Virus record (IMG/VR): IMGVR_UViG_3300029705_006209
DNA from: an uncultured virus (IMG/VR IMGVR_UViG_3300029705_006209)
Lineage: Duplodnaviria > Heunggongvirae > Uroviricota > Caudoviricetes
Direction: 5' to 3' (one strand)
Length of the DNA: 20,000 bases
Positions 2,877-20,000 of this stretch are shown here, piece after piece (positions within the stretch are counted from its first letter, which is position 1; each line of letters starts with the position of its first letter). The translations under genes were made by a program, and so were the position numbers. The notes under the pieces are model-generated. The model was not told the origin of the DNA, searched no databases, and worked only from the letters and a program-made list of their open reading frames with translations.

Positions 2877-3524
2877 TTATTTTTCATCGCCTTCGGAAGG
2901 AACTTCCTCTACATCTACGCCTGGCTCTTCAGCATTTTCAGCTTCTTCAGCGGCCTTCTTTTCTTCTTCTTTCATGTATTTCTTTGCCTGTCTGTAAGTC
3001 ATTTTGACGTAGTTTATGGTCTTGTCACCCTGCTTTACGCCTACCTTGACTGTTCCGCTGAGCCCCTGTGTAGCCGGCTTCATCGAAGTCAGCAGATATG
3101 CGCCGGTTGACTTAAGATACTCTTTTCCGTCCTTTCCCTGCAGCTGATCAAGTTCTTCCTTTGGTGCATCTTCAGCTACAGTGAAGAGAACTTTGAGGAG
3201 ATTTCCCTCAGCTTTGACCTTCATAGTCGTATATTCAGTAACAGGCATGTTCGAATACATTTCAGCGATGCCGTTATCTTCCATGTACTTCTCGATCGAA
3301 GCAGGCTTTGTAAAGTAGTCATAGCCATAGATAAATGCAAACATTCCCGCTATGACTCCGAAAATCAGCACGGCCAGCAGGATATTGTTAGGTCTGCTCT
3401 TCTTATCTTCCACTTTGTTGGCGGCTTTGCGAGCTGCTTTTGCCTCGCGTCTTTCAGCTTTTTTATTCCTGTTGTTTTCAGTCGCTACACGTACATCCGA
3501 CACTTTGTTGTTTTCGTTGCTCAT
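2877..3524 (-). CDS. Hypothetical single-pass membrane protein
   Basis: 215 aa: Lys/Arg-rich N-terminus, one hydrophobic helix (ILLAVLIFGVIAGMFAFIYGY), acidic C-tail; AAGGAG RBS upstream; tightly packed with neighbours. Confidence 0.8.
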   Translation of the reverse strand: MSNENNKVSDVRVATENNRNKKAERREAKAARKAANKVEDKKSRPNNILLAVLIFGVIAGMFAFIYGYDYFTKPASIEKYMEDNGIAEMYSNMPVTEYTTMKVKAEGNLLKVLFTVAEDAPKEELDQLQGKDGKEYLKSTGAYLLTSMKPATQGLSGTVKVGVKQGDKTINYVKMTYRQAKKYMKEEEKKAAEEAENAEEPGVDVEEVPSEGDEK

Positions 3525-4042: not shown

Positions 4043-6331
4043 TTATTTACGCTTTTTCGGAAACGTCATCTCAATTCGGGAATTTTTCTTATCCCAAGAA
4101 AGCATGGCGCTGTAATATTTCTGCCGCTTATCAGACCATAAGTCCTCTACATAGATGCTGCGATCCGCCTTCTTGGCTTTCGAAAGGAGAATGGCCTTTT
4201 CTTCTTCCGTGAATGTATGCTTGTTGAAAGTCTCAGGGAACTCCCTCTCTCGCACATTCAGATGGAAGCCCCAGAATGTCTTTCCTTTATACTTCTGCTT
4301 CTGGAGGGAACCTTCCGCAGTATATGTATTCCCTTTAGAGGAAACTGCCTCGAAGCTGATCTCTTCGCCGGCGAGAAGCTTTGCGACCTCTTCATCGGTA
4401 AAGGTGTGTCCTCCCCACTCCTTGTTGAATACGACTTCCTCTCCCGTAGGAGCATATACCTGAGCCGTCGTCTTTTCTTTGGCGACATATTCTCCTGCTC
4501 CGCCTACTGCTGCCGAGTCCTTTGGGGCGATGCGGTTCTCGCTGATGATGCGTGCAATATCCGTTCTGTTGGCATTGAGCACGTCCATGATCCCGATGTT
4601 CCCACGGCCTACAGACTTAAGGTCACGGCCCATATCTGCCGTCATTCTTGCAGAGAAGTCGATCCCAAGAGCCTTCGTTGCCTCAACAAGAAAGCGTCCT
4701 CTCGGCTCTATATGATAGGCTTTCTTCGTAAGGCTGATATAGCCTTTGTCAGCAGCCTTTTCCAGAATATTGGCTCTTGTTGCGACCGTTCCGATCTCAA
4801 GGCCGGCAAGGATGTTTTTGTAATCCTCTTCATCTGTCGAGTCCTCTTTTCGGAAGGGATTTTCCATCCATTTACCGAGGGCTTCCACCGTATAGTGCTT
4901 CGGCGGCTTTGTCTCGGCTGATACGGCCTGGAAATCCGTTGTTACGATGTCCCCTACGGAAACCTTAGGAAGGGTTCTTTCGTCGTCTTCCTCTTCACTG
5001 TCGTCCTTCTTCTGCTCTGCTTTCTTCTTCGGCTCGAAGCGCTGCCAGCCCTCCTGGACCAGAACCTCGCCCGACACCTTGAACTGCTCAAGAGGATTAT
5101 CTATAACAACAGTAGTCTTGTTGTATATGCAAGGCTCTTTGCAGAAGACAGCCATGAAGCGATAGAGAACAGTAAGGAAACAGTTTTTTTCTTCTTCCGT
5201 CAGATCGGATGAAGAGGGCCTTTTGCCTGTTACTGTGATAGCACTGTGCCCGTCTATCTTTGAATCGTCAAAGATAGCTTTACTGTCCTTGAACTCCAGG
5301 TATCCATCCCGGTTGATCTTGCTGATAATGCCTTTGACGGCAGACTTTTCAGCTTCGGCAATATATTCGGTGTTTGTCCTCGGATAGCTTGTAAAGCCTT
5401 TTTCATAGAGACTCTGTGCCAGTGCAAGCGTCTTGTCCGGTTTGTACCCGTAGCGTTTCGACATGACAGCCTGCAGCGAAGTCTGAGAAAACAGCTTCGG
5501 TGCTTTCTTGGTCACCTTCTTTTCCTGTATATCGGAAACAACCGATTTACCCGCCTGCAGTCTTGCTGCCCAGTCCTCTGCTTTTGCCTTTTCGTTCTTA
5601 TCGAATCGTTCCTTTGATGTCAGCTTGAAGCCGTTCTCCACATCGGATACGACCTTGAAGTACTCTTCTGGCACGAAAGCTTCTATTGCCGTGTCCCTGT
5701 TATAGATCTCTGTAACGATGGCACCGATTACACGCCCGATATTAAGAGCCGGACGCGCCTCCGTTTTGACCGTTGCATACTGGCTTAAGTTGATTCCATA
5801 ATCCCAGTCAAAACACATTCTGGTCATGCCCTCGTTGAAAACGAGCTTATACTCCGAATTAGGCTTAGCGATGCGAAAAGCTTCAACGATAGCCTCGTCG
5901 GTAAGCGCCTTAAGCTGAGGTCTCATTACGGGTTTTGTGTTCCCGCATTCTCTGAGTACCAGATCGACAAGGATCTGCCCCTCTCTGTCCGGGTCGCCGC
6001 AGTGATATATCATGTCTACCGCAGGATCTTTTACCAGCTTCTTTATGGTGTTGAAGCGTTTCTTGGCATCATCTCTGATGCTGTACTCATACTTTTTCGG
6101 AAAGAACGGCAGATTCTCGATTCTCCACGAACCAAGATTTTCACGGCCCGGATACTTTTCAGGCATTTTAAGCTCCAGAAGATGTCCGAACTGAGCCGTA
6201 GCTATGTAGTGCTCTGACTCGTTGTACTCTCCGTTATCTCTGCCTGCAAAATGCTCCCCTTGTGTTCCAAGAGCATGCATTATCGTTCGCATAAGGCTAG
6301 GTTTTTCCGCAATTACGAGCTTCTTTCCCAT
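4043..6331 (-). CDS. topB: Type IA DNA topoisomerase (topoisomerase III-like) with two C-terminal repeats
   Basis: TOPRIM motifs IAEKPS and GDPDREGQ, catalytic SYPRT, GTVATRA; C-terminal repeats HTFTDEEVAKLL and HTFTEEEKAILL. Start moved to ATG 6331 (MGKKLVIAEKPS), with AAGGAGG RBS at 6344-6350. Confidence 0.9.
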   Translation of the reverse strand: MGKKLVIAEKPSLMRTIMHALGTQGEHFAGRDNGEYNESEHYIATAQFGHLLELKMPEKYPGRENLGSWRIENLPFFPKKYEYSIRDDAKKRFNTIKKLVKDPAVDMIYHCGDPDREGQILVDLVLRECGNTKPVMRPQLKALTDEAIVEAFRIAKPNSEYKLVFNEGMTRMCFDWDYGINLSQYATVKTEARPALNIGRVIGAIVTEIYNRDTAIEAFVPEEYFKVVSDVENGFKLTSKERFDKNEKAKAEDWAARLQAGKSVVSDIQEKKVTKKAPKLFSQTSLQAVMSKRYGYKPDKTLALAQSLYEKGFTSYPRTNTEYIAEAEKSAVKGIISKINRDGYLEFKDSKAIFDDSKIDGHSAITVTGKRPSSSDLTEEEKNCFLTVLYRFMAVFCKEPCIYNKTTVVIDNPLEQFKVSGEVLVQEGWQRFEPKKKAEQKKDDSEEEDDERTLPKVSVGDIVTTDFQAVSAETKPPKHYTVEALGKWMENPFRKEDSTDEEDYKNILAGLEIGTVATRANILEKAADKGYISLTKKAYHIEPRGRFLVEATKALGIDFSARMTADMGRDLKSVGRGNIGIMDVLNANRTDIARIISENRIAPKDSAAVGGAGEYVAKEKTTAQVYAPTGEEVVFNKEWGGHTFTDEEVAKLLAGEEISFEAVSSKGNTYTAEGSLQKQKYKGKTFWGFHLNVREREFPETFNKHTFTEEEKAILLSKAKKADRSIYVEDLWSDKRQKYYSAMLSWDKKNSRIEMTFPKKRK

Positions 6332-6338
6332 ATCAGCC

Positions 6339-6569
6339 TTAAGCCTCCTTTGTGAGGTCGATGATGTCGAACCCGAAGTCCATAGCATTAAGAAGCTTGA
6401 TATACGTTCCGATTGTCGGATTACTTTTCCCGTTTTCGATGTAGCCTATCTGCTTACGGCTTATATCTGCAAGATCACTGAGAGCGCGTATAGAGAGGCC
6501 TCTCTCTTCTCGGCATTCGCGAAGGCTCGCTCCGGCAATAATTGCCTCCAAATTTTTCTTTTCGATCAT
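6339..6569 (-). CDS. XRE/Cro-C1 family helix-turn-helix regulator
   Basis: LRECREERGLSIRALSDLADISRKQIGYIENGKSNPTIGTYIKLL is a typical HTH_3 pattern. Confidence 0.88.
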   Translation of the reverse strand: MIEKKNLEAIIAGASLRECREERGLSIRALSDLADISRKQIGYIENGKSNPTIGTYIKLLNAMDFGFDIIDLTKEA

Positions 6570-6930: not shown

Positions 6931-7737
6931 CTAATGTGCGATGCTCTTGCAGGCATCTTCAAACGCCTGCCGGCTTTCCTCAGAGAGATTCTCCGCTTCA
7001 GATTCGTCAGTCTCGTCAAAGTGAAGATGATACATGCGTATCTCATAGTCTTTGCCGTCAATTGAAAGTTTTTTCGACAGCGGATTCTTGTCTCCTGTCA
7101 GATCCATGCTCAACGTATCATTTTCATTCTTCCATTGATAGAGAAGCTCCAGCGCAGCATCTTTGTCGTTGATCCACTCCTTTAACACGCAAAGGCTTCC
7201 GTCATCATTCTTCCCCCACGAGATAGTAGTCGGAAAGAATCCGTTCGGAGTATCGATATCCGCCATGCCGTTGATTTCTTCGTGTTCTTCCGATAGTCCG
7301 GAGTCTCTTTCCTTCAGACTCGAATAAAATTCATCAAACACCTGACGGTCTTCCTTGCTAAGAGGCTGTCTGTCTTCTCTGGACATGTACAGAGCCATTC
7401 GGTAACCGGCCTTTTCGAAGTGTTTATCATAGACCTGCTCCCCGTAATTTTCGTATTCATCCTTCCCGGAGCCTATATCCGGTGCTTTCTGAAGAAGCTG
7501 GAGACAGATATCGATATCTTTACATGCCCAGTGCGCCTCTGAAAGCGGAGCCTGATCCCCGTCGACATACTCTGTCTCGTAATCGAATTCGTAGCCGTCC
7601 GGGGCCGTAACATCGACAACATCACACAGATAAGATTCCGTGCTCATGTCACGAATAACCGGCTCGTCCTTTTCAGCCGCACATGCAGAAGCAAAAACCA
7701 TAGCTGCGGCAATCGCAAGTATAGCTATTTTTCTCAT
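6931..7737 (-). CDS. Putative lipoprotein
   Basis: Start reassigned to ATG 7737 (GGAGG upstream): MRKIAILAIAAAMVFASAC is a signal peptide with a lipobox-like Cys; the mature domain is acidic. Confidence 0.75.
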   Translation of the reverse strand: MRKIAILAIAAAMVFASACAAEKDEPVIRDMSTESYLCDVVDVTAPDGYEFDYETEYVDGDQAPLSEAHWACKDIDICLQLLQKAPDIGSGKDEYENYGEQVYDKHFEKAGYRMALYMSREDRQPLSKEDRQVFDEFYSSLKERDSGLSEEHEEINGMADIDTPNGFFPTTISWGKNDDGSLCVLKEWINDKDAALELLYQWKNENDTLSMDLTGDKNPLSKKLSIDGKDYEIRMYHLHFDETDESEAENLSEESRQAFEDACKSIAH

Positions 7738-7834: not shown

Positions 7835-9181
7835 TTACTTCATCCTCTGTATAGCGCTTTTTGCGAGTGAACTGCGCACCGACTGTGCTTCCCCGAAGCG
7901 GACGATTGCACAAGGCCCACCTTTCATCTTATCTGCAGCATACACAAGTCCGTTGTTCTTGGCGTCAAGATGCGGTGCATCGACCTGATCCGGGTCTCCG
8001 CAAAGAACGATCTTTGTTCCGACACCAGCTCTTGTAATTACATCTTTTATGAGTCCTCTGCTGGCGTTCTGTGCTTCATCGCAGAACACATAAGTATTTC
8101 GCAGTGTTCTTCCTCTTATATACGAAAGAGCGGTTATCTCAATGATGCTCTCGAATATATCTTCCACATGAATCTGCACCTGTCTCCTGTCGGTATTCCC
8201 TTTTTCAAGGAGAAGGCTCTCCATATTGTCGTAAAGCGGTGCAAGCAGCGGCTCCATCTTCTCGTTCATATCACCCGGCAGGTACCCGATACCCGGATCT
8301 GAGCTGAGGTTATTCGGTCTGCTCACAAGCATCTTGTAGTATCTGCTTTCTCCGCCCACGGACGAAGCGTACGTATCTTCGAGTCCCGCAGCAAGCGAAA
8401 GGAAAGTCTTGGCAGTCCCCGCCGGGCCGAGAAGGCATACAAGAGGAATCTCTTCCGGCGAAGCCTTAAGTGCATAAATCGCGTATGTCTGCAGATGATT
8501 GAGAGGCTTTATGCCGCCATAGAGAGACTGATCTTTTACAAGATGAAGTTCTCCCTTTCTTGCGATGGAAAGTCCCGACTGCTTTCCTGCGTGCAGCGTG
8601 ACAAATTCGTTCTCGAACAGCTTGAGTCCGTCCGGAATGAGAACCTTCTTCTTCGAATACAGCTCATCGATAACAGAACCCGCAACATCAGCATCCGTAT
8701 ATCCGCAGTAATCAGTTTCAACTTCTGTGTTCTTGTATGTCTGTACGTCGAGGTTGACTCCGGCATATCGGGCGCATATCGTGGCATTTACCCTCATAAG
8801 TATGTCGTTCGTCACAAGAATGACCGGCAGCTCGGATTTCTTGGCAATATTTATGCATGCAGAGATGATCCTGTTGTCTGGCTTATCTATGCTGAAGTCC
8901 GAAGGAAGAAATTCCCTGCTTGCCTCGTTGATCGTAACCACAAGACTTCCACCCGACTCATTTTCAACACCTGCAACAAGGTCTCCTCTCGTTCTCATTT
9001 CATCAAGAAGCCTGCTCGCTTCGCGGGCCTTTGCTCCGATTTCACCGGAAGCATTTTTCTTTGAATCAAGCTCCTGAAGAGAAGTATCTGTTACGATGAC
9101 GATATTATCCTCAAATCCGCAAACCATAGATGCCGGGTCTGCGAGAATGATATTTGTATCAAGCACGTATTTTTTCTGCAT
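7835..9181 (-). CDS. PhoH-family ATPase with N-terminal PIN domain (PhoH2/YlaK type)
   Basis: PIN motifs YVLDTNI and LVTND; P-loop GPAGTAKT; GYLPG, RGRTL, DEAQN, GDPDQVD. Confidence 0.92.
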   Translation of the reverse strand: MQKKYVLDTNIILADPASMVCGFEDNIVIVTDTSLQELDSKKNASGEIGAKAREASRLLDEMRTRGDLVAGVENESGGSLVVTINEASREFLPSDFSIDKPDNRIISACINIAKKSELPVILVTNDILMRVNATICARYAGVNLDVQTYKNTEVETDYCGYTDADVAGSVIDELYSKKKVLIPDGLKLFENEFVTLHAGKQSGLSIARKGELHLVKDQSLYGGIKPLNHLQTYAIYALKASPEEIPLVCLLGPAGTAKTFLSLAAGLEDTYASSVGGESRYYKMLVSRPNNLSSDPGIGYLPGDMNEKMEPLLAPLYDNMESLLLEKGNTDRRQVQIHVEDIFESIIEITALSYIRGRTLRNTYVFCDEAQNASRGLIKDVITRAGVGTKIVLCGDPDQVDAPHLDAKNNGLVYAADKMKGGPCAIVRFGEAQSVRSSLAKSAIQRMK

Positions 9182-9236
9182 TTCTTTGCACTCCTTTTGA
9201 TATGTTTCAGTCTTTGTTGCCCGCAGGTAAGAGAAT

Positions 9237-9620
9237 CTACCGCATTATGGTCGAAATCAATGGCGGCCCTTCTTCAATCCTGACATCCCAGTCAGCAAAT
9301 CCTGCATTTTTAAGATCTGAAAGAAAAGCTTCTGCTACAGCAAGGGCCTTCTCATTTCGTTCTTTAACGCTATCAGGGGTTTCTCCTCCGATAGCGGAAA
9401 GCGTATAAATCTCTCCGTAAACAAGATCAGAGAAAACTCGGAGATCGAGTCTGATAGTGTTTTCCGGCTCGAGTCCTGCCGCTACTATCGGGAAAATAAG
9501 GTTTGCTGACTTTTGCTGCTCGAACAGTCTCCTGCTTCCGAGTGCAAACTCGTAGACACCCTTCTTCTTCGGCACGAATTTGAAGCAGTGCGTCGGTTTT
9601 AATGAAAATCCGGTCAACAT
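9237..9620 (-). CDS. Hypothetical protein
   Basis: 127 aa ORF, GAGGAG RBS, co-oriented; no recognisable motif. Confidence 0.65.
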   Translation of the reverse strand: MLTGFSLKPTHCFKFVPKKKGVYEFALGSRRLFEQQKSANLIFPIVAAGLEPENTIRLDLRVFSDLVYGEIYTLSAIGGETPDSVKERNEKALAVAEAFLSDLKNAGFADWDVRIEEGPPLISTIMR

Positions 9621-9679
9621 TTTTCTAGTCTCCTCTTATACCTGCACATTAACTTCATGATTCTGCGGAGCCGGACCGA

Positions 9680-11944
9680 TCAGGCCCGGACTCCATCATT
9701 TCTTTCCCTTTTGTTTTGTTTTTTCTGGCTTTGACGTTCGTATTTCGAAAGGCCCTCTTTCTTTGTCAGCTCATAAAATACAGGGCTGCAGAGGAAGATG
9801 GACGAATACGTACCTGTGAACACGCCTATCATCAATGGAATCAGGAATGATCTGAGTTCTGAAGACGCCATGATGAACAGCGGGATCATTACGATAAGTG
9901 TTGTGAGCGATGTCATAAGTGATCTGGACATCGTCTGGTTGATGCTTGTGTCGATAAGCTCGATACCCTGTTTGCGCTTGAAGAACTTCGAGTTCTCTCT
10001 TATGCGGTCAAATACTACGATCGTATCGTTGATCGAGTAACCTACAACCGTGAGGATACCTGCGATGAACGGATTGTTGATCGTGATACGGAATATCGCA
10101 TAAAGAGAAAGAGTCACAAGTACGTCATGCGCAAGTCCCGCAACAGCTGCAAGACCATACTGCCAGTTCTTGAATCTGAATCGTATGTAGATAAGCATGC
10201 ACAGAGCCGCTATAAGTATCGACTTTATAGCGTTCTTTCTGAGATCCTTACCGACCGTAGGGCCGAACTCTTCGGAAGCAAGAACGTCGTTGTCATCGAA
10301 TCCGTATTTCTGCTGAAGCGTATCTACTACCCGGCTTCTCTCGTCGGATTTCAGATCCTTGATGGTCCTGATGATGACCTGTGAATTATTGTCCGTTGCA
10401 TATACAATGGTTGGATCAAGGTTGTATTCGGCGATAGCATCTTTGACCTCTTCTATCGTGACTTCCTTGCCGAGTTCTATCTGCATCATCGTGCCGCCGG
10501 TGAAATCAATACCGTAGTTGAAGCCCTTAAAGGCAAATACCGAGGCACCAACAAGGATAACCGCAAGACTCAGAGCGTAGAACTTCTTTCTGTTTTCAAT
10601 GAACTTGAAATTGAATTTCCAGTTGAATCTTGGAGTTCCGTCTTCTCTGATGCCGAACATCGCAGGTGTTCCGAATTTCTCGCTTCCGGCAAGCAGATTG
10701 ACGAAGAGCTGAGTGATGAATACGGCAGTAATGACGGAAACGACAGTACCTATCATCAGCGTAAGAGCGAAGCCCTTTACTGAAGTTGTTCCGAATGTGT
10801 AGAGTACAAATGCCGCTACAAGCGTTGTTGTCTGCGAGTCGACTACCGTGCTGAGTGCAGCATGGTATCCTGTATCCACAGCCACCCTTACGGACTTTCC
10901 TTTCTGTATCTCTTCTCTTATTCTGGTAAAGATGATGACATTGGAATCAACAGCCATACCGATGGACAGGATGATACCTGCAATTCCCGGAAGTGTAAGA
11001 ACAGAGCCCATGCCCGCCATAATCCAAAGCACTACCTGTATGTAAAGAAGAAGAGCAAGGTCGGCAACAAGGCCAAGCATTCCGTAGGCAATCACCATCA
11101 GGATGAGCACCAGTCCGAGACCTATGGCTCCAGCCTTGACCGAAAGCTGCAGTGCGTTCGCTCCGATGGTAGCAGTCTGTACCGATGAATTGATTTCGGT
11201 CAGATTAGCCGGAAGAGCACCGCCTCTGATGAGAGCGGAAAGCTGAGATGCTTCCGTCTCACTGAATCCGCCCGGTCTTGTAATCTCGCAGCTTCTTGAA
11301 TTGATCTTCTCGTGAACAAGAGGTGCCGAAATAACTTCATCGTCGAGTGCTATGACGATCGCTGTGCTGTCCACAGGATTGCCCGCCTCGTCTGTCATCG
11401 TAGCCGCTACCTGGCCCTGATACGCTTTCTCAGTAGCTTCTGCAAAAGCGTTGCTGCCGTCAGGAGTAAAATCAATGGTGATCTTATATCCGCCATTGGT
11501 CGTGTCATTGGCAACCTGTGAGTCGCTGATGCCATCGCCCGTAAGAGCAAGTGACCCGTCAGCGAGGAAGAACTGAAGCTGAGCCGTACGCCCGATCTGC
11601 GAGATAGCTTCTTCGGCGTCTTCTACTCCAGGCATCTCTACTCTGATGCGCCTGTCGCCTTCAATCGAAACCTGAGCCTCACTTATGCCCATAGCGTTTA
11701 CTCTGTTTTCAAGAACGCTCTTTGTCTGATTCATGATCGCAGCAAGCTCTGTGCCGGTCTCCTTTGTATCAGCTTCAAGCAGTACATAGACTCCGCCATT
11801 GATGTCGAGTCCGTACTTCAGCTGCTTTCCGAGATTCCCGAACTTGCCCGGTATGCCGAATATGGCAATGGCCCACGAACCGATCAGCAATGCGATGATC
11901 AGGACCGCCAGAACGGCATTTCTTGTTTTACTTTTCTTTGTCAT
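9680..11944 (-). CDS. secDF: Fused protein translocase subunit SecD-SecF
   Basis: YGLDINGG, IRVEMPG, GALP, LTLPGIAGIILSIGMAVDSN (SecD half); GIDFTGG, GYSINDTIVVFDRIRE, QTMSRS, GTYSSIF (SecF half); GAGGAG RBS. Confidence 0.96.
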   Translation of the reverse strand: MTKKSKTRNAVLAVLIIALLIGSWAIAIFGIPGKFGNLGKQLKYGLDINGGVYVLLEADTKETGTELAAIMNQTKSVLENRVNAMGISEAQVSIEGDRRIRVEMPGVEDAEEAISQIGRTAQLQFFLADGSLALTGDGISDSQVANDTTNGGYKITIDFTPDGSNAFAEATEKAYQGQVAATMTDEAGNPVDSTAIVIALDDEVISAPLVHEKINSRSCEITRPGGFSETEASQLSALIRGGALPANLTEINSSVQTATIGANALQLSVKAGAIGLGLVLILMVIAYGMLGLVADLALLLYIQVVLWIMAGMGSVLTLPGIAGIILSIGMAVDSNVIIFTRIREEIQKGKSVRVAVDTGYHAALSTVVDSQTTTLVAAFVLYTFGTTSVKGFALTLMIGTVVSVITAVFITQLFVNLLAGSEKFGTPAMFGIREDGTPRFNWKFNFKFIENRKKFYALSLAVILVGASVFAFKGFNYGIDFTGGTMMQIELGKEVTIEEVKDAIAEYNLDPTIVYATDNNSQVIIRTIKDLKSDERSRVVDTLQQKYGFDDNDVLASEEFGPTVGKDLRKNAIKSILIAALCMLIYIRFRFKNWQYGLAAVAGLAHDVLVTLSLYAIFRITINNPFIAGILTVVGYSINDTIVVFDRIRENSKFFKRKQGIELIDTSINQTMSRSLMTSLTTLIVMIPLFIMASSELRSFLIPLMIGVFTGTYSSIFLCSPVFYELTKKEGLSKYERQSQKKQNKRERNDGVRA

Positions 11945-11990
11945 GTTACATCTCCTCGTTTGATGTTTTATTTTTTAAGGGTTGCAGCCC

Positions 11991-12063
11991 TTTGGTTACT
12001 CCCGTGGTAGGTGCATACCTGTGGCGTTGGTTGCTTCCGTGGTAGGTGATTACCTACTCCCGT
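11991..12063. repeat. Imperfect 29-bp tandem repeat (period 35) plus a partial third copy in the secY-secDF spacer
   Basis: 11992-12020 TTGGTTACTCCCGTGGTAGGTGCATACCT vs 12027-12055 TTGGTTGCTTCCGTGGTAGGTGATTACCT (25/29 identical); TACTCCCGT again at 12055-12063; each unit contains an AGGT-N4-ACCT mini-hairpin. Confidence 0.8.
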
Positions 12064-12072
12064 ACGCCCATT

Positions 12073-13329
12073 TTACCTAAGAAAGCCCTCGTATTTATTC
12101 ATAAGCTGACGCTCGTTGACCTGTCGTACGGTTTCAGTTGCGACGCCCACCAGGATAAGCAGACTAGTTCCGCCGAAACTTAAGTTAAGCGGAGTAAAGG
12201 CTCCTATAGCAGTAGGCAAAGTGGATATTGCCGCAAGGAACAGTGCATCGAGCACGCACAGCCTTTTGGATATGCTTGACAGATACTCAACTGTCGGCTT
12301 GCCCGGTCTGATTGCCGGAATAGCACCGCCGTTGTTCCTCAGGTTGTCCGCAATATCATTCGGCTTGAATACGATCGCTGTATAGAAGAAGGTGAAGAAT
12401 ATCACCAGCAGCACATTCAGCGCCATGTACACCCATACACCGACGGAACCGTTAGGCGACAGATATTTGCTAACAAAATCCGCATATGCCGAGTGCGGGC
12501 AGAAGTAAGTAATTGTCAGCGGAAGCTGCAGAACTGAAACTGCAAAGATGATCGGAATAACACCGGATGCGTTCAGCTTCATCGGAATATGAGTGCTCTG
12601 TCCCCCGTACATCTTCCTTCCGACAACCTTCTTTGCATACTGCACAGGAATCTTTCTGACACCGCCCTGCACATACAGGATGACAACGATCACCGCTACT
12701 GATGCAACAGCAATACCAGCGATGGCTACCCACGAAAGCGTTCCCTCGATACCTTTTCTGATCAGATCTCTTACTGCAACAGGCAGTCTCATTACGATGC
12801 CTGCAAAGATGAGCAGAGACATACCGTTTCCGACACCATACTCATTGATCTGCTCGCCCAGCCACATAAGAGCCGTAGTTCCTGCAGTCAGTGTAAGAAC
12901 GATGCTGATGGAAGTAAGCGCCGTCTGATCGATAAGGGCTGACCTGAAAAGTCCGAACGTCATTCCTGCAGCCTGTACCAGCGCAAGAACTATCGTTACA
13001 TATCTTGTTATGGCAGCCATCTTCTTGCGTCCGGTCTCACCCTCTTCCGCCAGCTTCTCAAAGTATGGGAAGGCTATGGTCAGAAGCTGAATGATGATGG
13101 ATGCTGTGATGTATGGCGTTACACCCAGAGCAAACAGCGTGAAATTCTGAAAGCTTCCGCCTGTAAATAGATTGTACAGATCGAAAAGTCCCGAATTAGT
13201 CCCCGTAAACACCTGTGCAAGAGCCTCTTTGCTCACTCCTGCAACCGGAATGTTGGCTCCTATGGCAAATACCGAAAGGATGAGAACCGTAAATATGATT
13301 CTTGATCTTGTTTCTTTGTTTATCTTCAT
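12073..13329 (-). CDS. secY: Preprotein translocase subunit SecY, canonical type but outside the spc ribosomal operon
   Basis: LFALGVTPYITASIIIQLL, MWLGEQI, GVGNGMSLLIFAGIV, KLNASGVIPIIFA, IPAIRPG, FGGTSLLILVGV, C-terminal YEGFL; many hydrophobic segments. Confidence 0.96.
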   Translation of the reverse strand: MKINKETRSRIIFTVLILSVFAIGANIPVAGVSKEALAQVFTGTNSGLFDLYNLFTGGSFQNFTLFALGVTPYITASIIIQLLTIAFPYFEKLAEEGETGRKKMAAITRYVTIVLALVQAAGMTFGLFRSALIDQTALTSISIVLTLTAGTTALMWLGEQINEYGVGNGMSLLIFAGIVMRLPVAVRDLIRKGIEGTLSWVAIAGIAVASVAVIVVILYVQGGVRKIPVQYAKKVVGRKMYGGQSTHIPMKLNASGVIPIIFAVSVLQLPLTITYFCPHSAYADFVSKYLSPNGSVGVWVYMALNVLLVIFFTFFYTAIVFKPNDIADNLRNNGGAIPAIRPGKPTVEYLSSISKRLCVLDALFLAAISTLPTAIGAFTPLNLSFGGTSLLILVGVATETVRQVNERQLMNKYEGFLR

Positions 13330-13356
13330 TTCACTAAAAACCTTTCTCGTAACGTA

Positions 13357-13398
13357 GCGCAGAAGACCTCGACTTCTGTAAGCCGCGGAGGAATGCGC
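13357..13398 (-). repeat. Subterminal imperfect palindrome at the 3' end of the IscB element (putative TnpA recognition hairpin)
   Basis: Minus strand GCGCA-TTCCTCCGCGGCTTACAGAAGTCGAGGTCTTC-TGCGC, a few nt after the iscB stop. Confidence 0.7.
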
Positions 13399-13406
13399 CC
13401 GTGGAA

Positions 13407-14756
13407 TTAAACTGCTTGTCTCCAGCCACCAACGTGATGGTGGAGTTTTATCTTTCTCGGCGAAATATCGCCACCTCCAATAAGCTGTACGCTTGCACCC
13501 TTGTTGTGAGTACCTTTGACCATGCGCTTCTCTCCACCGAAGATGACAATATCGCCTGGCTGATACAGATACCGCTGCATGCGGATACTGCGTCTGCCTT
13601 TCGAGCTCTTCTTCCCGCGGAAGATGCGCTCGTTCTGCGGATTACTTCTCGGTGTGGATCTTGAGGTGCGGTTACACCCGAGCTCCGCCGCCTTCTTCGT
13701 CTTGCCGTCACGTACATCCACATATTTCGCATCGTAGAACTTCTCAAGTATGCGGTTGTTGCGGCGGCGCTTCTCGAAGTGAAGTGTCTTCGTCCGGTGC
13801 CTCGGTTTCATACTGCCGATGCAGTAGGCATCGTTTGCGTGAGACTTTTCGATATTGAGATCAAGTCTCGTACGCTTAGTTACGGCACCATAGGTGATGC
13901 GGATTTCGACACCGAAAGCTTTGACCCTCTCGTAGATGTGCCACTTTACGGTGTTCATATACGCTGCGGATGCCGTACCTTTCGGCGGCTTCAGATCCCA
14001 GAGCTTTCCACCTGGCTTATGGTTCTTCGGGCTGTGGCACTTCTCGCATACTGATGCGAGATTACTAAGTCGGTTACTTCTGTCGCCTGTACGGAAGCCG
14101 ACGTGATGGACGCGAAGGATGACTCCGTCTTCTATAGCCGACTTACCGCAGCAGAGACATCTGTAGCCGTCTCTTGCGAAGACTGCCTCTCTCAGCGTAT
14201 CATAGCCGTAACGCGGGCCGTGCTGGTAATCAGCTCCCTCAGGTACAGGCTTCCCCTGCTCTACAGCATCAAGGACCGCCGTATCGAACTGGCCCATCTC
14301 CAGCGAGACGCTCGTTATTGGGCATACCGCATAGTACATCCTGAAGATGTCAACGTGGCGGTCCGCCTTGTTTTTAAGCGACGGAGCGAGCCAGCCTTCA
14401 GGTCTTCTCCTGTTATCAAAGCGCGCCTTGCGGTGGTGCTTCCTGTTTCGCCGGGGGCGTCTTGCCTCGCGGCGCTGATCATCGTGATGCTGCTTCTCGT
14501 TTTTAAGGAGTGTATACTCGGCGCTCACGTATTCGTGTTTCTCCGACTTGAGAGAGACTCCGATATACTGATAACCGGTATCCTCCGTTAATTCGATCGG
14601 CTGCACAGCGTTTCCGCTCTCGTACAGAAGCTGTACGGTGAACGGCATATGCTTTACGATCTTTGCTCTTCCGGATCGGAGGAGCTTTCTTATCTTCCTG
14701 ATGTTTGTCGTCGGCATCAGCTTTTCGCCCTCTGCCGAGATGACGAAGGTCGTCAT
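13407..14756 (-). CDS. iscB: RNA-guided endonuclease IscB (PLMP/RRXRR, split RuvC, HNH)
   Basis: KLMPT (PLMP-like); RuvC-I EDTGYQYIG; Arg-rich bridge helix RRPRRNRK...ARFDNR; RuvC-II SLEMGQFD; CLCC...HHVG...SNLASVCEKCH (HNH); RuvC-III KSHANDAYCI; AAGGAGG RBS. Confidence 0.95.
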   Translation of the reverse strand: MTTFVISAEGEKLMPTTNIRKIRKLLRSGRAKIVKHMPFTVQLLYESGNAVQPIELTEDTGYQYIGVSLKSEKHEYVSAEYTLLKNEKQHHDDQRREARRPRRNRKHHRKARFDNRRRPEGWLAPSLKNKADRHVDIFRMYYAVCPITSVSLEMGQFDTAVLDAVEQGKPVPEGADYQHGPRYGYDTLREAVFARDGYRCLCCGKSAIEDGVILRVHHVGFRTGDRSNRLSNLASVCEKCHSPKNHKPGGKLWDLKPPKGTASAAYMNTVKWHIYERVKAFGVEIRITYGAVTKRTRLDLNIEKSHANDAYCIGSMKPRHRTKTLHFEKRRRNNRILEKFYDAKYVDVRDGKTKKAAELGCNRTSRSTPRSNPQNERIFRGKKSSKGRRSIRMQRYLYQPGDIVIFGGEKRMVKGTHNKGASVQLIGGGDISPRKIKLHHHVGGWRQAV

Positions 14757-14769
14757 GCGCTCCTCCTTT

Positions 14770-15148
14770 CTCTTCTTACTTTTGCTTTAACGTACTTTGC
14801 CTTACGGCTTCCGCATACCGTTTCTCTATAGAGGCGTGTGTACGGATCCTCGCTACTTGCTTTTCAGCGTTCACGGTTGTCCACATCGCCAATGTTATCC
14901 TGCGGTTTTTACATAGCACACTTCGCCTACCCGTCAGCGATGTTTAATACTATGCCGTAGTGCCCGGGACTTGTGGAGCATCCCGGGGTACCTATGCTTG
15001 ATACAAGGAGGGACCCGCTATGCGGGAGGATTCCTTATATCGTTATTCGCAGATAACGTAGTGCCCTGAGCACTTAGGCTAATCAACTGACTTGTTTTTA
15101 CAAGCCCCCGCTTCAAGAGCTGAAAGCTCTAAGCGGTGGGTAGTTGAC
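14770..15148 (-). ncRNA. omegaRNA (HEARO-like) scaffold of the IscB element
   Basis: Contains blocks typical of HEARO/omegaRNA: GTCAACTACCC...GGGGCTTG...GTTGATTAGCCTAAG...CTACGTT...ATAGGTACC...TTAAACA...AAAAACC...AACATTGGCGA; non-coding, directly upstream of iscB; 3' end approximate. Confidence 0.85.
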
Positions 15149-15321
15149 TACCCCACAATCAGAGAAATCAGCTTGATAACGACCTCGCTAACACCCCAGA
15201 GAAAGACAGCGGATGCCGCACAGAACGCAATAGTAACAGCGGAATTTCTTGTAAGTTCCTCTTTTTCAGGGAAGATTGTCTTTTCTGCTTCTTTGCGTAC
15301 GCTCTTGAAAAACTCGAACAT
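15148..15321 (-). CDS. secE: Preprotein translocase subunit SecE (57 aa, below the ORF-track cutoff)
   Basis: MFEFFKSVRKEAEKTIFPEKEELTRNSAVTIAFCAASAVFLWGVSEVVIKLISLIVG*: amphipathic helix, hinge Pro (FFK.V..E..K..xP...EL), then one TM helix; AGGAGG RBS at 15330-15335 overlaps the secG stop. Confidence 0.85.
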   Translation of the reverse strand: MFEFFKSVRKEAEKTIFPEKEELTRNSAVTIAFCAASAVFLWGVSEVVIKLISLIVG

Positions 15322-15333
15322 ATATCCTACCTC

Positions 15334-15567
15334 CTATTTGATAATCAAAGCTGCAAACGCAAGTATGAAGTACAGAACGAGGCAGACAGAAGTGATCCTG
15401 TGAAGTATCACATCATAGCCCTTGCTCTTCTTCTTACCGAAAAGCTGTTCTGCACCGCCTCCGATAACACCGGAAAGACCATCAGACTTGCTCTCCTGCA
15501 GGGAGACGGAAACCACAAGCAAAACGCTCACGATTATCGCTCCGATCTTAATAACGCTTCCAATCAT
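15334..15567 (-). CDS. secG: Preprotein translocase subunit SecG
   Basis: VSLQESKSDGLSGVIGGGAEQLFGKKKSKGYDVILHRIT with two TM segments, a typical Bacillota SecG; GGAGG RBS. Confidence 0.95.
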   Translation of the reverse strand: MIGSVIKIGAIIVSVLLVVSVSLQESKSDGLSGVIGGGAEQLFGKKKSKGYDVILHRITSVCLVLYFILAFAALIIK

Positions 15568-15681
15568 AAATAACCTCCGTTCTTGATATCATCAACTTAC
15601 TTTATCCCCCAATGCTCTCTCTTATTGAGAAAGCCCTTCTTCTCAGGAATCATCATCTTCCGTATATCTTTCCGTGCCACC

Positions 15682-17952
15682 CTAATCGCTGCCGTCATTG
15701 AAGAACTCGTAGCGGTTAGCATCAGGATTGTAGTGGACATTTGAGCCAGAGTCCGAGTCGTCGTCATCGTCATCGGATCTGCTTCTGGAACTGCTGTGAT
15801 TGCCTCCCGATCTTCTTGGCGAAGATGATTTCGGTACATATGTCGCTCTGGCAGGAACGGTCCCTTCCGTGTAATATTCTCCATACTGACTCACGACATC
15901 ATCCGGCTGTGACGGATACTCTCCGTCAGTAACATCAGGAACCTGCCGCATTATCTGCGACCAAAGCGCAGCCGCTGTGCTTGACGTTGTTCCCATCGCT
16001 TTGTTGTGATCGGTGCCGATCCATAAGGCAGCAGAATACTTCGGCGTGAATCCGCAAAACCAGATATCGTAAGTATCGTTCGTTGTTCCTGTTTTGCCTC
16101 CGACAGAGACCCCGCTTATAGCTGCCGCTGACGCGATACCCCGGGAAACGGCGCTCTGCAGCACATCGGTCATGATGTAAGCTACGCCCTCGTCGAGGAC
16201 CTGAGTCCTTTCCGCTTCTCCCTTAAGGATGGTATTGCCCTCGCTGTCTACGACCTTCTCGTAGCATACGGCGCTGCATCTTACTCCTCCTGCAGGAAAT
16301 GTCCCGTATGCCAGAGCCATATCCAGAGGCGTTACCCCGTACGTCATTGCCCCCAGAGCCATTGCTGCCGGGTTCAGATCATTTGCCGCCTGACTGCTGT
16401 CATCCACAGCAGTAGAGATGCCGTATTTTTTAAGCATCTCCATTGAATAGTCAGTGCCGACCTGCATCTGTATCTTTACAGCACAGGTGTTGATCGACTT
16501 CTGAAGTGCGGTTCTGAATGTATTCCAGCCCGAATAATACCTGTTTGCATTAAGCGGCCAGACCTGCCCGTTCATAACGACCCTTTCATCAGCTACATAA
16601 CTTGATGCCGTTATGTAATCGCCCCAGTTGCTTGCACCCTGCCGGTCGATCCCGTAGTTTTCAAACGGGAACTTCTTGCCTTCCGATTCAAGCTCGAAAC
16701 TCTTTTGGAGCGCCGCGCTGTATACGGTAAGCGGTTTTATGGATGATCCGGGCTGTCTCGGCGACACAGCTCTGTTGAAGAGTTTGCGCCCGACTGCGCC
16801 CCTGCCGCCGACCATAGCACGTATCCTGCCCGTGTCCGCTTCGGTTATGACCATTGCCGCCTGCGGCTCCTCTTCAGACCACGGGAAATTGTAATCGTTG
16901 GAGAACTCTTCCCTTATTACCGTCTGTGCCTCTGGGTCGATAGTCGTATAAATATGGAGCCCGCCTGCATGTACGGTTCGGTCAGCTTCGTCTTCAGACA
17001 TCCCGTATTCTTTCATCAGATCTCTGACCACAGCGGAAGTAACATAGTCGGTAAAGTAGGTATATTTAGAAGACGACTTGTCGAAATGCGGGTGGAGGAT
17101 GTCGATAATGTCCACGGTGGCTTCTTTCGCCTCTTCATCCGTGATATACCCCTGCTCCACCATGAGAGACAGAACAAGGTCCCGTCTGTCCTTCGACATG
17201 TCGTTTGCATACAGCTTCAGCTTCTTCATATAGGTCGTATGCTCGCCCTCTTCATTCTGAAGAAGCGCATACATATCCGGTGCCTGTGGAAGGGCTGCAA
17301 GCGCTGCAGACTCTGCAAGAGAAAGGTCCTTAACTTCCTTGCCGAAATATGTATTCGCCGCAGCATTCAGTCCATAGCAGCCGTAGCCCAGATATATGGT
17401 GTTCAGATATGCCTCCAGAATTTCATCTTTTGACAGGATCTGCTCTATCTGGAAGGCGTAGTACATTTCCCGCACTTTACGCTCTATTGTCCGGTCGCTT
17501 TTTATTTCAGCCAGGAAAACGTTTCTTGCAAGCTGCTGCGTTATGGTGCTTGTTCCGCTGATTTCTGCCGATTTACCAATCAGCTTATAAAACACCGCAC
17601 CGGCCATCCTGCGGAAGTTGAATCCGTGATGCTTATAAAAGGTCTTGTCTTCTATAGCAATAAAGGCGTTTTTCGTGATTTCCGGGATTTCTTCGGATGA
17701 AAGAAGTGTTCTGTCTTCCGTATAATAGAGTTTATCTATCTCTTTCCCGTTCCTGTCATATACATACGAAGTCTTGTCGACTTTGCTGTACAGTGCCTCC
17801 GGATCTATCGGTTCGCTTTCGGATGCGATATAAAGGACATACCCGGCCGCCGCCGCTGAACACAAAATGAAGGCAGCAAGAAGTAATTTGAAAATAGCGC
17901 CGATGATGCGTCTTGCTTTACCTTTTCTTTTCTTTTTCCTTTTCCCCTTCAT
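15682..17952 (-). CDS. Class A penicillin-binding protein (PBP1A family; transglycosylase + transpeptidase)
   Basis: N-terminal TM anchor; glycosyltransferase motifs EDKTFYKHHG, GTSTITQQLARN, RKVRE, YLNTIYLG; transpeptidase motifs SSIK, SIN, KTGT; Ser/Asp-rich tail. ATG 17952 preferred over GTG 17961. Confidence 0.95.
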   Translation of the reverse strand: MKGKRKKKRKGKARRIIGAIFKLLLAAFILCSAAAAGYVLYIASESEPIDPEALYSKVDKTSYVYDRNGKEIDKLYYTEDRTLLSSEEIPEITKNAFIAIEDKTFYKHHGFNFRRMAGAVFYKLIGKSAEISGTSTITQQLARNVFLAEIKSDRTIERKVREMYYAFQIEQILSKDEILEAYLNTIYLGYGCYGLNAAANTYFGKEVKDLSLAESAALAALPQAPDMYALLQNEEGEHTTYMKKLKLYANDMSKDRRDLVLSLMVEQGYITDEEAKEATVDIIDILHPHFDKSSSKYTYFTDYVTSAVVRDLMKEYGMSEDEADRTVHAGGLHIYTTIDPEAQTVIREEFSNDYNFPWSEEEPQAAMVITEADTGRIRAMVGGRGAVGRKLFNRAVSPRQPGSSIKPLTVYSAALQKSFELESEGKKFPFENYGIDRQGASNWGDYITASSYVADERVVMNGQVWPLNANRYYSGWNTFRTALQKSINTCAVKIQMQVGTDYSMEMLKKYGISTAVDDSSQAANDLNPAAMALGAMTYGVTPLDMALAYGTFPAGGVRCSAVCYEKVVDSEGNTILKGEAERTQVLDEGVAYIMTDVLQSAVSRGIASAAAISGVSVGGKTGTTNDTYDIWFCGFTPKYSAALWIGTDHNKAMGTTSSTAAALWSQIMRQVPDVTDGEYPSQPDDVVSQYGEYYTEGTVPARATYVPKSSSPRRSGGNHSSSRSRSDDDDDDSDSGSNVHYNPDANRYEFFNDGSD

Positions 17953-18008
17953 AGGCAGCACCCTTTTTAATTAAGTCCTTCCCGATACAACGAAGTCACA
18001 ACTGCAGT

Positions 18009-18332: not shown

Positions 18333-18719
18333 TTAAACCTCTTCGATTTCAATCCCCAGAAGAGCCAGCATGAGCTTCTTTTTCAGCTTATATACATCAG
18401 TCTTAACGCCTTTGGCATCAAGAACCTTCAGTTCTCCGTCCTGCATATAGGAAAAATCGGCCTTATACGTGATCGCTCTCTGGATAGGCTTCCCGTCCCG
18501 TCGCACCGCCGGCACAAGTTCAAAGGCAGGCTGAAGTTTCAGCTCACTGATCTCACCTGCCCGCTCGAGGATCTTCAGCTCGGCATATATATCTCTCTCA
18601 TGCTCTGAGTCGAACCGGTGTCCGTCCAGGTAGACCGGCTTGTTCCGATACTTTCTTGTTGCGGTACCCTCTTCACCAAGAAGATCTCTGTATTCTTTTT
18701 CCGAAAACCTTACAGCCAT
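18333..18719 (-). CDS. DUF1064-family protein (phage-associated, PD-(D/E)XK nuclease-like)
   Basis: KYRNKPVYLDGHRFDSEHE...LKLQPAFEL...ITYKADFSY...VLDAKGVKTDVYKLKKKLM matches the family pattern as I recall it. Confidence 0.85.
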   Translation of the reverse strand: MAVRFSEKEYRDLLGEEGTATRKYRNKPVYLDGHRFDSEHERDIYAELKILERAGEISELKLQPAFELVPAVRRDGKPIQRAITYKADFSYMQDGELKVLDAKGVKTDVYKLKKKLMLALLGIEIEEV

Positions 18720-18778: not shown

Positions 18779-20000
18779 AGCGGCAAGAGAGCCCCGACCT
18801 CTAAGCGTTAGCGTAGGTGGAGGGATGAATTGCCGTTTTATGTGTAAACTAATCCTTGATTATATTTCACTATTTGACATTCCCTTGCAGGAATGCGGGT
18901 TCCATTGACCTTATAGTAGCAACCGTTATTTTCCTGCGAGGTAAGAATGAATATCCTGCCGTCATGGCGAACGATCGCACCCGGCATGATACGCTCCGGG
19001 TTGTTGTAGCGTCTGTAGGACTTCCTTACCTTCAGCCTCGACAGCATGCGGTCAGCTTCTTTCCTGCCGCAAAGTCTGACCTGCTTTTCATACCACTGCG
19101 ACAATGCCAGTCCTTTCTGATCGATGCGAGGCTTTCGGTTCCTCGCAACGGTCTTGCCGTCAAGCTTGTATGTGCGTTCAGGCTGATTATTGATCTTCGC
19201 TCTGTTGTGGCGCCTGAACTGCTTCACGCTGAAAGTTTTGGCCTCAGGCTGCATTGGTATCACGCCTGTCGCCATCGACGCGATGCACAGAGCATCGATA
19301 TCGTGGTCCTTGTCAAGGCCGGCTGCATAGCGCATCTCTTTCGTGTCGTATCCGGCGCAGATGAAGACGTTCTCTTCACCGAAACGTTCGACAAGACCCA
19401 GATAAATGTACGGTATCGCCTGATTCAGCACGCTCAGCGCCTGATACTTCTTGCCGAAGCCCTCGACATCGAGCTCGAGCTCACCGATATGTATCTTAGT
19501 GTGGCAGCTGTTGCACAGACCCACCTTGTTCTCCGGTCCGTCAAAGCCGTTGTCGTTTTGCTCCTTCACATGATGGTACTGCTCGATCGGTGCTCCGCAG
19601 CAGAAGCACCTGCCTTTCTGACGCTCGTACACGAAATCATCGACCGAGGCGTAGCCTTTCAGTCTGCCGTTCTGGAAGTCGATACCTCTGATCGCTCCGT
19701 CCTCCAGCTTCATGAAAGCGAAGCGGTTCGCCTCAAGGCACCAGCCTTTGACCGGAAGTATCTTTCTTATCTGATCGACGTGGTTCAGATGCGTGTCGAC
19801 AAGATGTTTAACACTCGGCGTTATGAGCTGCCTCTTCTTCCGGTTCCTGAACCTTGCCTCCTGATTGATGATATCCTTCACGAGCGTAGGTTTTTTCGTC
19901 CCCGGGATAAGTCTGCCGCTTCCGAGCTTTGTCGACAGAGTATTGTGCTTTTTGGCGAGACGCTTTCTCGCGAGGCGTCTTCCTCTGCGGCGCGCCTGAC
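18773..20000 (-). mobile_element. Second IscB (IS200/IS605-superfamily) element, partial
   Basis: iscB followed by subterminal hairpin CGGCAA-TTCATCCCTCCACCTACGCTAACGCTTAGAGGTCGGGGCTCTC-TTGCCG (18835-18781); 5' end and omegaRNA lie outside the window; boundary approximate. Confidence 0.8.
18838..20000 (-). CDS. iscB: IscB endonuclease, OgeuIscB-like subfamily, 5'-partial
   Basis: The frame continues upstream of the tracked GTG (QARRRGRRLARKRLAKK...LIPGTKKP...INQEARFRNR); RuvC-II LEANRFAF; HNH CFCC...YHHV...ENKVGLCNSCH; ALSVLNQ; RuvC-III KDHDIDALCIA; QFRRHNR. Confidence 0.92.
   Translation of the reverse strand, partial: QARRRGRRLARKRLAKKHNTLSTKLGSGRLIPGTKKPTLVKDIINQEARFRNRKKRQLITPSVKHLVDTHLNHVDQIRKILPVKGWCLEANRFAFMKLEDGAIRGIDFQNGRLKGYASVDDFVYERQKGRCFCCGAPIEQYHHVKEQNDNGFDGPENKVGLCNSCHTKIHIGELELDVEGFGKKYQALSVLNQAIPYIYLGLVERFGEENVFICAGYDTKEMRYAAGLDKDHDIDALCIASMATGVIPMQPEAKTFSVKQFRRHNRAKINNQPERTYKLDGKTVARNRKPRIDQKGLALSQWYEKQVRLCGRKEADRMLSRLKVRKSYRRYNNPERIMPGAIVRHDGRIFILTSQENNGCYYKVNGTRIPARECQIVKYNQGLVYT

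Follow-up and report, generated by a model that had tools for sequence, protein, structure and literature searches.

A clustered secG-secE-secY-secDF set with discordantly diverged subunits in animal gut metagenome DNA, probably carried by a megaplasmid-like element

A 20,000-nt stretch of DNA filed in IMG/VR as the uncultured virus IMGVR_UViG_3300029705_006209, in the following referred to as the window, carries the genes of the SecYEG export channel and a fused secDF in one consecutive series, secG-secE-secY-secDF. SecY, SecE and SecG of the window are far more diverged than the adjacent SecDF and DnaE predict. The series is probably an accessory SecYEG operon, carried by a conjugative-megaplasmid-like element in Mogibacterium-like bacteria of the animal gut; its host-type secDF would have been recruited recently, and an IscB insertion recently split the operon.

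The four sec genes are consecutive and tightly packed

Window genes were assigned by Pfam, PHROG and NCBIfam/TIGRFAM models with curated cut-offs, with which 17 open reading frames (ORFs) of the window were scanned. For comparison, the genus of G001 served as reference genus (67 species genomes), complemented by a family set of 401 genomes. The features of the cluster are, in the order of transcription:

15334..15567, minus strand: secG, 77 aa; PF03840 61.1 bits (cut-off 29.2), TIGR00810 56.2 (cut-off 30.85)
15148..15321, minus strand: secE, 57 aa; PF00584 46.2 bits (cut-off 22.7), TIGR00964 52.4 (cut-off 27.55)
13332..15146, minus strand: IscB/omega-RNA insertion, polymorphic, absent from a contig of run X14
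14876..15148, minus strand: HEARO/IscB omega RNA; Rfam RF02033, 121.2 bits (gathering 83), full model 1-211
13407..14756, minus strand: IscB RNA-guided nuclease, 449 aa; PF14239 RRXRR and HNH; NF040563 285.9 (cut-off 175)
12073..13329, minus strand: secY, 418 aa; PF00344 E 5.8e-106, TIGR00967 380.3 (cut-off 253.6)
9680..11944, minus strand: fused secDF, 754 aa; TIGR01129 378.5 (cut-off 244.4), TIGR00966 365.1 (cut-off 160)

An earlier sequence-only reading of this DNA had described the four sec genes as consecutive and co-oriented. This was affirmed: all of them are on the minus strand, as is every large ORF of the window, and all pass curated models. The cluster begins with secG, which has a GGAGG motif 7 nt ahead of its ATG. 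Its TAG stop overlaps the GGAGG of secE (TAGGAGGTAGGATATATG), in agreement with the reported overlap of the secE ribosome binding site and the secG stop, and the spacer between both genes is 12 nt. The 57-aa ORF, previously picked by hand as secE, scored above the cut-offs of both secE models. The gap from secY to secDF is 128 nt, and the domains SecD_1st, P1 head, Sec_GG and SecD_SecF_C (PF21760, PF22599, PF07549, PF02355) are joined in one fused SecDF protein. Promoter and terminator scans returned counts at shuffle level (9 versus 9.4; 11 versus 7.4) and placed neither signal in the intergenic gaps, which leaves them neutral on co-transcription. The GC content is even at about 0.48 (0.485 overall) except in the IscB genes, and no tRNA was found in the window.

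As stated before, only IscB lies between secE and secY, but the insertion also has a HEARO/omega RNA, which begins on the last base of the secE stop codon. In a contig of run X14, from an approximately 95% identical strain, position 13331 is joined to 15147, with 1815 bases skipped and 'TT' in between. Since this contig is devoid of the 1.8-kb unit, the IscB unit is a recent polymorphic insertion, and without it secE and secY are directly adjacent, with about 6 nt between the secE stop and the secY start. The unit resembles IscB/HEARO elements of the IS200/IS605 kind, with an IscB ORF, an upstream HEARO RNA and a present or absent unit of about 1.8 kb, and shows no notable difference from them. 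Copies of this IscB with 86-88% identity occur in two of the 67 genus genomes. As a passenger, it interrupts the operon and has no part in the export machinery.

The spacer between secY and secDF (11945-12072) varies between strains: positions 11993 and 12020 were found joined to 12073, with 22 and 20 other letters in between, respectively. Such a variable spacer fits a junction made when secDF was added.

SecY, SecE and SecG are discordantly diverged

Within the reference genus SecY is more conserved than SecDF, and in the window this pattern is reversed. SecDF proteins of the genus share 69-74% identity, apart from the pair G001 and G249 with 84%, and the window SecDF falls among them with 69-88% (best G418 at 88%; 82-83% to G001 and G249). 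SecY proteins of the genus share 81-90% (90% between G001 and G249), whereas the window SecY reached only 60-65% in all 52 genomes with a match and 64-65% in G001 and G249. The contrast is most evident in G418, G450 and G433, which are 87-88% identical to the window in SecDF yet 64-65% in SecY. Ordinary vertical descent cannot give these numbers.

SecG behaved like SecY, with 56-69% identity between the window and five genus genomes that share 71-90% among themselves; for G001 and G249 the values are 64-69% to the window versus 90% between the two. For secE, tblastn gave no match in G001 or G249, and 29-36% identity in three other genus genomes. DnaE of the window matched 66 of the 67 genomes at 68-76%, with 72-73% to G001 and G249, which are 82% identical to each other.

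Phylogenies were calculated as 'quick' or FastTree trees, in which long branches leave the exact attachment points unsure. In the SecDF tree the window protein is sister to G249 within the G001/G249 subclade, with supports of 97 and 100 in the Shimodaira-Hasegawa-like approximate likelihood ratio test (SH-aLRT); in a tree of 125 SecDF sequences it belongs to a clade of 8 rows (support 99) including NCBI proteins from metagenome-assembled genomes (MAGs). DnaE also joins the G001/G249 subclade, on an end branch of 0.57 compared to a median of 0.06, i.e. about tenfold longer. SecY was placed in a clade of 17 rows with a stem of 0.36 and SH-aLRT 100, beside Mogibacterium-like genomes and inside the Anaerovoracaceae. 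Set against the host copies, a comparison proposed in the sequence-only reading, SecDF is thus nested inside the genus and SecY lies outside of it.

The sec genes of related genomes occupy their usual, scattered positions

The closest SecY genes were sought in 185,579 species genomes (GTDB), and the 80 best loci were inspected including 10 kb around each. Among the matches listed, the closest genes had at most 65% identity and belonged to Mogibacterium-like Anaerovoracaceae, mostly from ruminants. At none of these best 80 loci did a match to SecDF, SecE or SecG lie closer than 10 kb to secY. In the nearest genomes, the sec genes are scattered in the contexts rpsE-rplO-secY-adk-map, secE-nusG-rplK, pgk-tpi near secG, and polA-coaE-yajC-secDF-relA-hisS, and in G249 yajC is directly ahead of secDF. 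The window cluster therefore stands outside the normal chromosomal contexts, as claimed at the outset, and the order seen in the window was not shared by the chromosomes of close relatives at these best 80 loci.

As a possible source of the gene order we considered a compacted host segment. This was rejected: the class A penicillin-binding protein (PBP) encoded next to secG in the window is closer to a non-colinear paralogue (61-62% versus 55%), and divergence is very uneven between genes. In three genus genomes (G249:C9, G002:C19 and G357:C1) a region of about 70 kb contains secDF, secG and a class A PBP gene in the order and on the strand known from the window; this colinearity was judged a coincidence because the window PBP is closer to another paralogue.

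Window-type SecY forms a clade of metagenome proteins

All 17 rows of the SecY clade of the window are metagenome proteins. In a large protein collection, SecY relatives were found at 84-86%, 72-79% and 62-67% identity, and for the cluster of the window SecY itself, contigs reach 127,773 nt. A window-type SecY was found neither in the 67 genus genomes nor in the 401 family genomes (best 65% in both sets), nor at the best 80 GTDB loci. NCBI members were found in none of six small window-type SecY clusters and among none of 40 inspected members of a 375-member cluster (417-aa proteins); both host-type SecY clusters examined contain Mogibacterium MAG proteins. The longest contigs measured less than about 149 kb for window-type clusters and up to 287 kb for host-type clusters. 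Alignment of 44 window-type and 14 host-type sequences revealed 165 columns conserved and identical in both groups and 6 fixed differences; judged by these columns, window-type SecY is under constraint.

For 14 SecG relatives, the longest contig has exactly the same nucleotide count as that of a window-type SecY cluster (15,980; 27,393; 52,573; 12,390; 4,299; 3,216; 27,283; 62,940; 5,329; 6,464; 7,797; 19,035; 3,956; and 43,856 nt). A matching SecG contig size was found for 10 of the 23 non-self SecY clusters at 72% identity or more, and for none of about 12 host-type SecY clusters in a reading of two tables. Several of the matched contigs are very short, some of 3.2-6.5 kb, which places secG and secY within a few kb of each other. 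These equal sizes in the tables suggest that secG-secY linkage is kept across the window-type clade. SecDF relatives gave one size match only (62,940), and that SecDF belongs to a different subclade from that of the window. From the table entries we infer an old secG-secE-secY core, to which secDF would have been added, or in which it would have been exchanged, later from the host at hand.

Additional SecY-like frames were noticed in a few genus genomes. G431:C115:1635-2906 is a second SecY-like frame 41% identical to the window SecY, G413 and G415 have two host-type copies each (63-64%), and G428 has a second partial match (57%). Their source may be contamination or duplicated bins, or they may represent true paralogues.

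Comparison with described Sec systems

The cluster encodes proteins of canonical type: SecY, SecE and SecG are recognized by TIGR00967, TIGR00964 and TIGR00810, and SecDF has the SecD P1 domain, the GG motif and the SecF C-terminal domain in one protein. The resemblance to canonical SecYEG-SecDF extends to the 165 SecY columns conserved with the host. It differs from the canonical set in that its genes are clustered and not scattered, yajC is missing ahead of secDF, and SecY, SecG and SecE are long-branched. The SecYEG-SecDF-YajC-YidC holo-translocon differs further, as neither YajC nor YidC had a family match in the 17 window ORFs; secA, ffh and lepB were equally without a Pfam match there. 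The window had initially been interpreted as a complete second SecYEG-SecDF holo-translocon core in portable form. The non-housekeeping arrangement and the diverged SecY, SecE and SecG stand in favor of this interpretation, but 'holo-translocon core' goes too far, given the missing YajC and YidC. The secDF looks like a recent add-on, being nested among host SecDFs with up to 88% identity.

SecA2/SecY2 systems are similar in having a second SecY-type channel beside the housekeeping one. However, the window SecY scored below the cut-offs of both SecY2 models (NF009082, 170 versus 353; TIGR02920, 162.5 versus 249.6), no SecA2, Asp1-5, glycosyltransferase or serine-rich substrate was detected among the 17 window ORFs, and SecE and SecG of the window are canonical. 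The earlier distinction from SecA2/SecY2 was therefore confirmed.

The accompanying statement that no such system has been described has to be withdrawn. According to a 2026 preprint, Hodors are conjugative megaplasmids of about 357 kb from human-gut Bacillota with Rep_3, ParAB and a type IV secretion system (T4SS), and they carry a SecY-SecG-SecE operon, reported to be co-transcribed, beside trigger factor and sortase B genes (PMC12934698). This Sec set, separate from the genes of the host itself, is proposed there to export giant surface proteins encoded by the element (>7300 and ~2600 aa). All 38 curated genomes have SecY (447 aa, with Faecalibacterium as nearest kin), and 27 of the 38 have Pol III alpha (supplementary table 2); TnpB-type nucleases are frequent. 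Hodors were missed by plasmid and MAG surveys and are known only from human gut and wastewater (PMC12934698).

Both cases have in common a clustered secY/secG/secE set on gut Bacillota DNA (window 12073-15567) and Pol III alpha. They differ in several respects (PMC12934698). The order listed for Hodors is SecY, SecG, SecE, versus secG-secE-secY in the window, which adds secDF; the words SecDF and SecD are absent from the Hodor text and table. SecY has 447 aa and Faecalibacterium as nearest kin in Hodors versus 418 aa and Anaerovoracaceae in the window. The trigger factor and sortase genes beside the Hodor Sec set had no counterpart among the window matches, and human gut and wastewater stand against animal gut and faeces runs for the window DNA. 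The window thus differs from the Hodor case by host family, habitat, gene order and presence of SecDF. Because nearest kin and size of SecY differ, the window Sec module would probably be independent in origin from that of Hodors. A mobile cluster of all four genes, secG-secE-secY-secDF, was not found described in full-text searches of the literature.

Neighboring genes and a related plasmid-like contig

In the direction of transcription, the ORFs of the window are the cut second IscB, DUF1064, an orphan ORF of 106 aa, class A PBP, secG, secE, IscB, secY and the fused secDF. Downstream of secDF follow an orphan of 127 aa, the PIN-PhoH ATPase, a lipoprotein, an orphan of 99 aa, the topoisomerase III-like gene, two small membrane-protein ORFs and dnaE. 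The features outside the sec cluster are:

18838..19998, minus strand: second IscB; RRXRR and HNH; truncated by the window end
18333..18719, minus strand: DUF1064, phage-type Holliday junction resolvase-like; PF06356; phrog_190
15682..17961, minus strand: class A PBP (transglycosylase and transpeptidase); PF00912 and PF00905; upstream neighbor of secG
7835..9181, minus strand: PIN-PhoH (PhoH2-like) ATPase; PF13638 and PF02562; downstream neighbor of secDF
6931..7737, minus strand: predicted lipoprotein, 268 aa; signal ending ...VFASAC
4043..6388, minus strand: topoisomerase III-like, plasmid-associated kind; PF01131 and Toprim
2877..3524, minus strand: membrane-anchored ORF of 215 aa
2..2860, minus strand: dnaE (Pol III alpha); NF005298 1475.9 (cut-off 1260); 3' part off the window start

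Some of these genes have counterparts in the genus. dnaE is, judged by its tree position, host-derived but long-branched, and the window PBP is 55-68% identical to several paralogues in genus genomes. The 215-aa ORF has relatives with 65-70% nucleotide identity in G249:C16, G001:C9 and G357:C25, which marks it as a host-derived gene.

Other genes are rare in or foreign to the genus. The topoisomerase was found in one of the 401 family genomes; in PLSDB it comes closest to genes on C. perfringens plasmids (40-42%), and conjugative records make up 4165 of the best 5000. DUF1064 is present in one of the 67 genus genomes. For PIN-PhoH, all frames matched in genus genomes are shorter (mostly 320-360 aa) and align over the C-terminal half with 35-39% identity; a 45% relative is located on the contig L138. 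The second IscB is 28.5% identical to the first, so that two IscB families reside within 6 kb.

The IscB copies led to a 162,836-nt contig, G439:C42 (GC 0.483), binned in a genus genome. It shares with the window the topoisomerase (72%), both IscB types (86-89%, with 89% for the second) and a relative of the 127-aa ORF (40%). Its plasmid genes comprise Rep_3, ParA, ParB, two VirD4/TraG-type coupling proteins and a TraG P-loop ATPase. Its envelope genes encode a sortase, a giant M23/NlpC/CHAP cell-wall hydrolase of 1755 aa and giant surface proteins, the latter including sizes of 1549 and 1019 aa as well as SpaA/TQ and Big-domain types. It further encodes single-stranded DNA-binding proteins, helicases, Cas12a, restriction systems including type I, GmrSD, integrases (three tandem tyrosine) and TnpB; roughly every second ORF lacks a Pfam match. 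Two contigs of the Joint Genome Institute (JGI) are related: L139 (156 kb) is 78-92% identical to parts of G439:C42 and has a topoisomerase at 71% to that of the window, and L138 (115 kb) has PBP, topoisomerase (63%) and PIN-PhoH in common with the window, among helicases and orphan genes. Judging by these relatives, the non-host neighbors of the sec cluster point to a conjugative-megaplasmid-like element.

The DUF1064 resolvase-like gene is located two genes upstream of the class A PBP gene. This neighborhood recalls the recU-ponA pair of Bacillus subtilis, although DUF1064 is distinct from the RecU family. The predicted lipoprotein ORF had no Pfam, PHROG or NCBIfam match; in Protein Atlas it gave weak leads to PsbP/Mog1p-like lipoproteins of Bacillota.

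A mobile element as probable carrier and alternative explanations

We infer the type of replicon, the coexistence with a sec set of the host and the function as follows. The cluster would be carried by a large mobile element, for which a conjugative megaplasmid is the likeliest form and Mogibacterium-like Anaerovoracaceae of animal guts the likeliest hosts. SecY, SecE and SecG may have been taken long ago from an ancestor of the host genus and have diverged together since, while secDF, encoding the proton-driven pulling factor, may have been added or replaced more recently from the host chromosome. Through the 12-nt and, without IscB, ~6-nt spacers, secG, secE and secY would be packed for coupled translation, and we propose that their products are synthesized at matched levels and assemble into a complete SecYEG channel of the host membrane; the 165 shared conserved SecY columns support such assembly and conduction indirectly. 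With no secA, yidC, yajC, ffh and lepB in the window, this channel would rely on SecA, the signal recognition particle and YidC of the host. A likely use would be extra or private export capacity for envelope proteins encoded by the element, for instance giant sortase-anchored surface proteins like those of the related plasmid-like contig; by analogy, such added export capacity is probably its role.

Several observations weigh against this interpretation. Chromosomes typically carry genes like dnaE, class A PBP and secDF, and the GC content of the window is that of the host genus. Pfam and PHROG revealed no replication, partition, transfer or phage genes in the window; Rep_3, ParA, ParB and T4SS genes of the Hodor type are present on G439:C42, which has no Sec genes, and the incomplete genome with this contig gave no SecY match. 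In G011, a 53% relative of the topoisomerase has a clearly chromosomal context, 8 kb from the G011 dnaE. Window relatives were found neither in IMG/VR nor in PLSDB, and the co-location of secG and secY in relatives is based on equal contig sizes and not on read sequence.

Alternatively, the cluster could reside in a chromosomal genomic island, an integrated conjugative element or a chromid, as a second sec set beside the standard one. Host-like dnaE, PBP and secDF are interleaved with mobile-type genes, G439:C42 encodes several integrases, and the G011 topoisomerase is chromosomal as well. An integrated copy, however, usually bins with the chromosome, and no window-type SecY was found in the genus or family genomes searched; moreover, no integrase or attachment site was found in the window. 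We regard an island as unlikely. Quite unlikely, too, is that the cluster represents the sole, rearranged housekeeping sec set of an uncultured and fast-evolving, perhaps reduced, relative of the genus that escaped binning. The four sec genes look intact and conserved, with dnaE and PBP nearby, the identities of SecY relatives grade smoothly from 62% to 86%, and no second sec copy was seen in the window sequence. Against this, vertical descent cannot yield 88% identity in SecDF and 65% in SecY to the same genomes, nor a SecDF nested inside the genus and a SecY outside of it. Among 199,900 species genomes one would expect to find a lineage that reaches a depth of 9-19 in runs from 14 studies, and the neighbors PIN-PhoH, DUF1064 and topoisomerase do not belong to the gene stock of the genus.

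That the window is part of a huge phage genome with host-derived export and replication genes is very improbable. PHROG matches exist for DnaE, PhoH, topoisomerase, DUF1064 resolvase and HNH/IscB, and such phages could be missed, since one jumbo-phage survey excluded contigs annotated 'preprotein translocase' as prokaryotic (PMC13037316). However, no capsid, portal, terminase or tail match was found in the window, L138 or L139, no close relative was found in IMG/VR (partial PIN-PhoH matches at best), and the nearest kin is a contig with plasmid replication, partition and conjugation genes.

The accessory SecYEG operon on a megaplasmid-like element remains the interpretation we prefer. A more far-reaching version, which we put forward only tentatively and hold to be doubtful, assumes an old and widespread megaplasmid-like lineage of Anaerovoracaceae with a private, co-evolving SecYEG for its own giant surface proteins and a SecDF swapped from the current host. 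In that case, hundreds of window-type SecY sequences from gut metagenomes would mark elements discarded by genome binning and virus pipelines.

In phylogeny and in scoring of genome completeness and contamination, SecY serves as a marker that is taken to be single-copy and inherited vertically. If the preferred interpretation is true, elements can bring their own export channel, a mobile and fast-evolving SecYEG that is here joined to SecDF, and provide a natural test of whether a diverged SecYEG works beside, or apart from, the host channel. Contigs of this kind would likely be discarded as contamination, comparable to the exclusion by annotation in the phage survey (PMC13037316). Alongside the Hodor megaplasmids (PMC12934698), the window would be a second case, probably of independent origin, from a different host family and from animal guts, and would suggest a recurrent strategy.

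Occurrence and strain variation

In phage and plasmid collections, megablast detected no DNA near-identical to 9000-16000. SecY matches in these collections (tblastn) did not exceed 52% identity and were set aside as misfiled chromosomes. One of the records, L137 (MT835508.1, filed 'Bacteriophage sp.'), has a run of short ORFs around secY as in a bacterial spc operon and, judged by ORF sizes, is probably bacterial DNA. IMG/VR contained no relative when SecY, SecDF, the clade motif, the topoisomerase or P0098 was the query, and with PIN-PhoH only partial matches of 32-36%. In JGI metagenome contigs the degenerate motif FDLYNLFTGGSFQNF, which matches the window, had 0 matches; the JGI relative P0004 is therefore outside that contig collection.

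DNA of the cluster was present in 20 listed runs of 14 studies, all of them animal faeces or gut metagenomes, and nine of these runs contain at least half of its words; no RNA run is among those listed. Four runs examined share the gene order of the window from dnaE to PBP, with 90-100% identity. In runs X10 and X14, positions 2794-2938 between dnaE and the 215-aa ORF give way to 813 and 834 other letters, which is an insertion or variable cassette in related strains.

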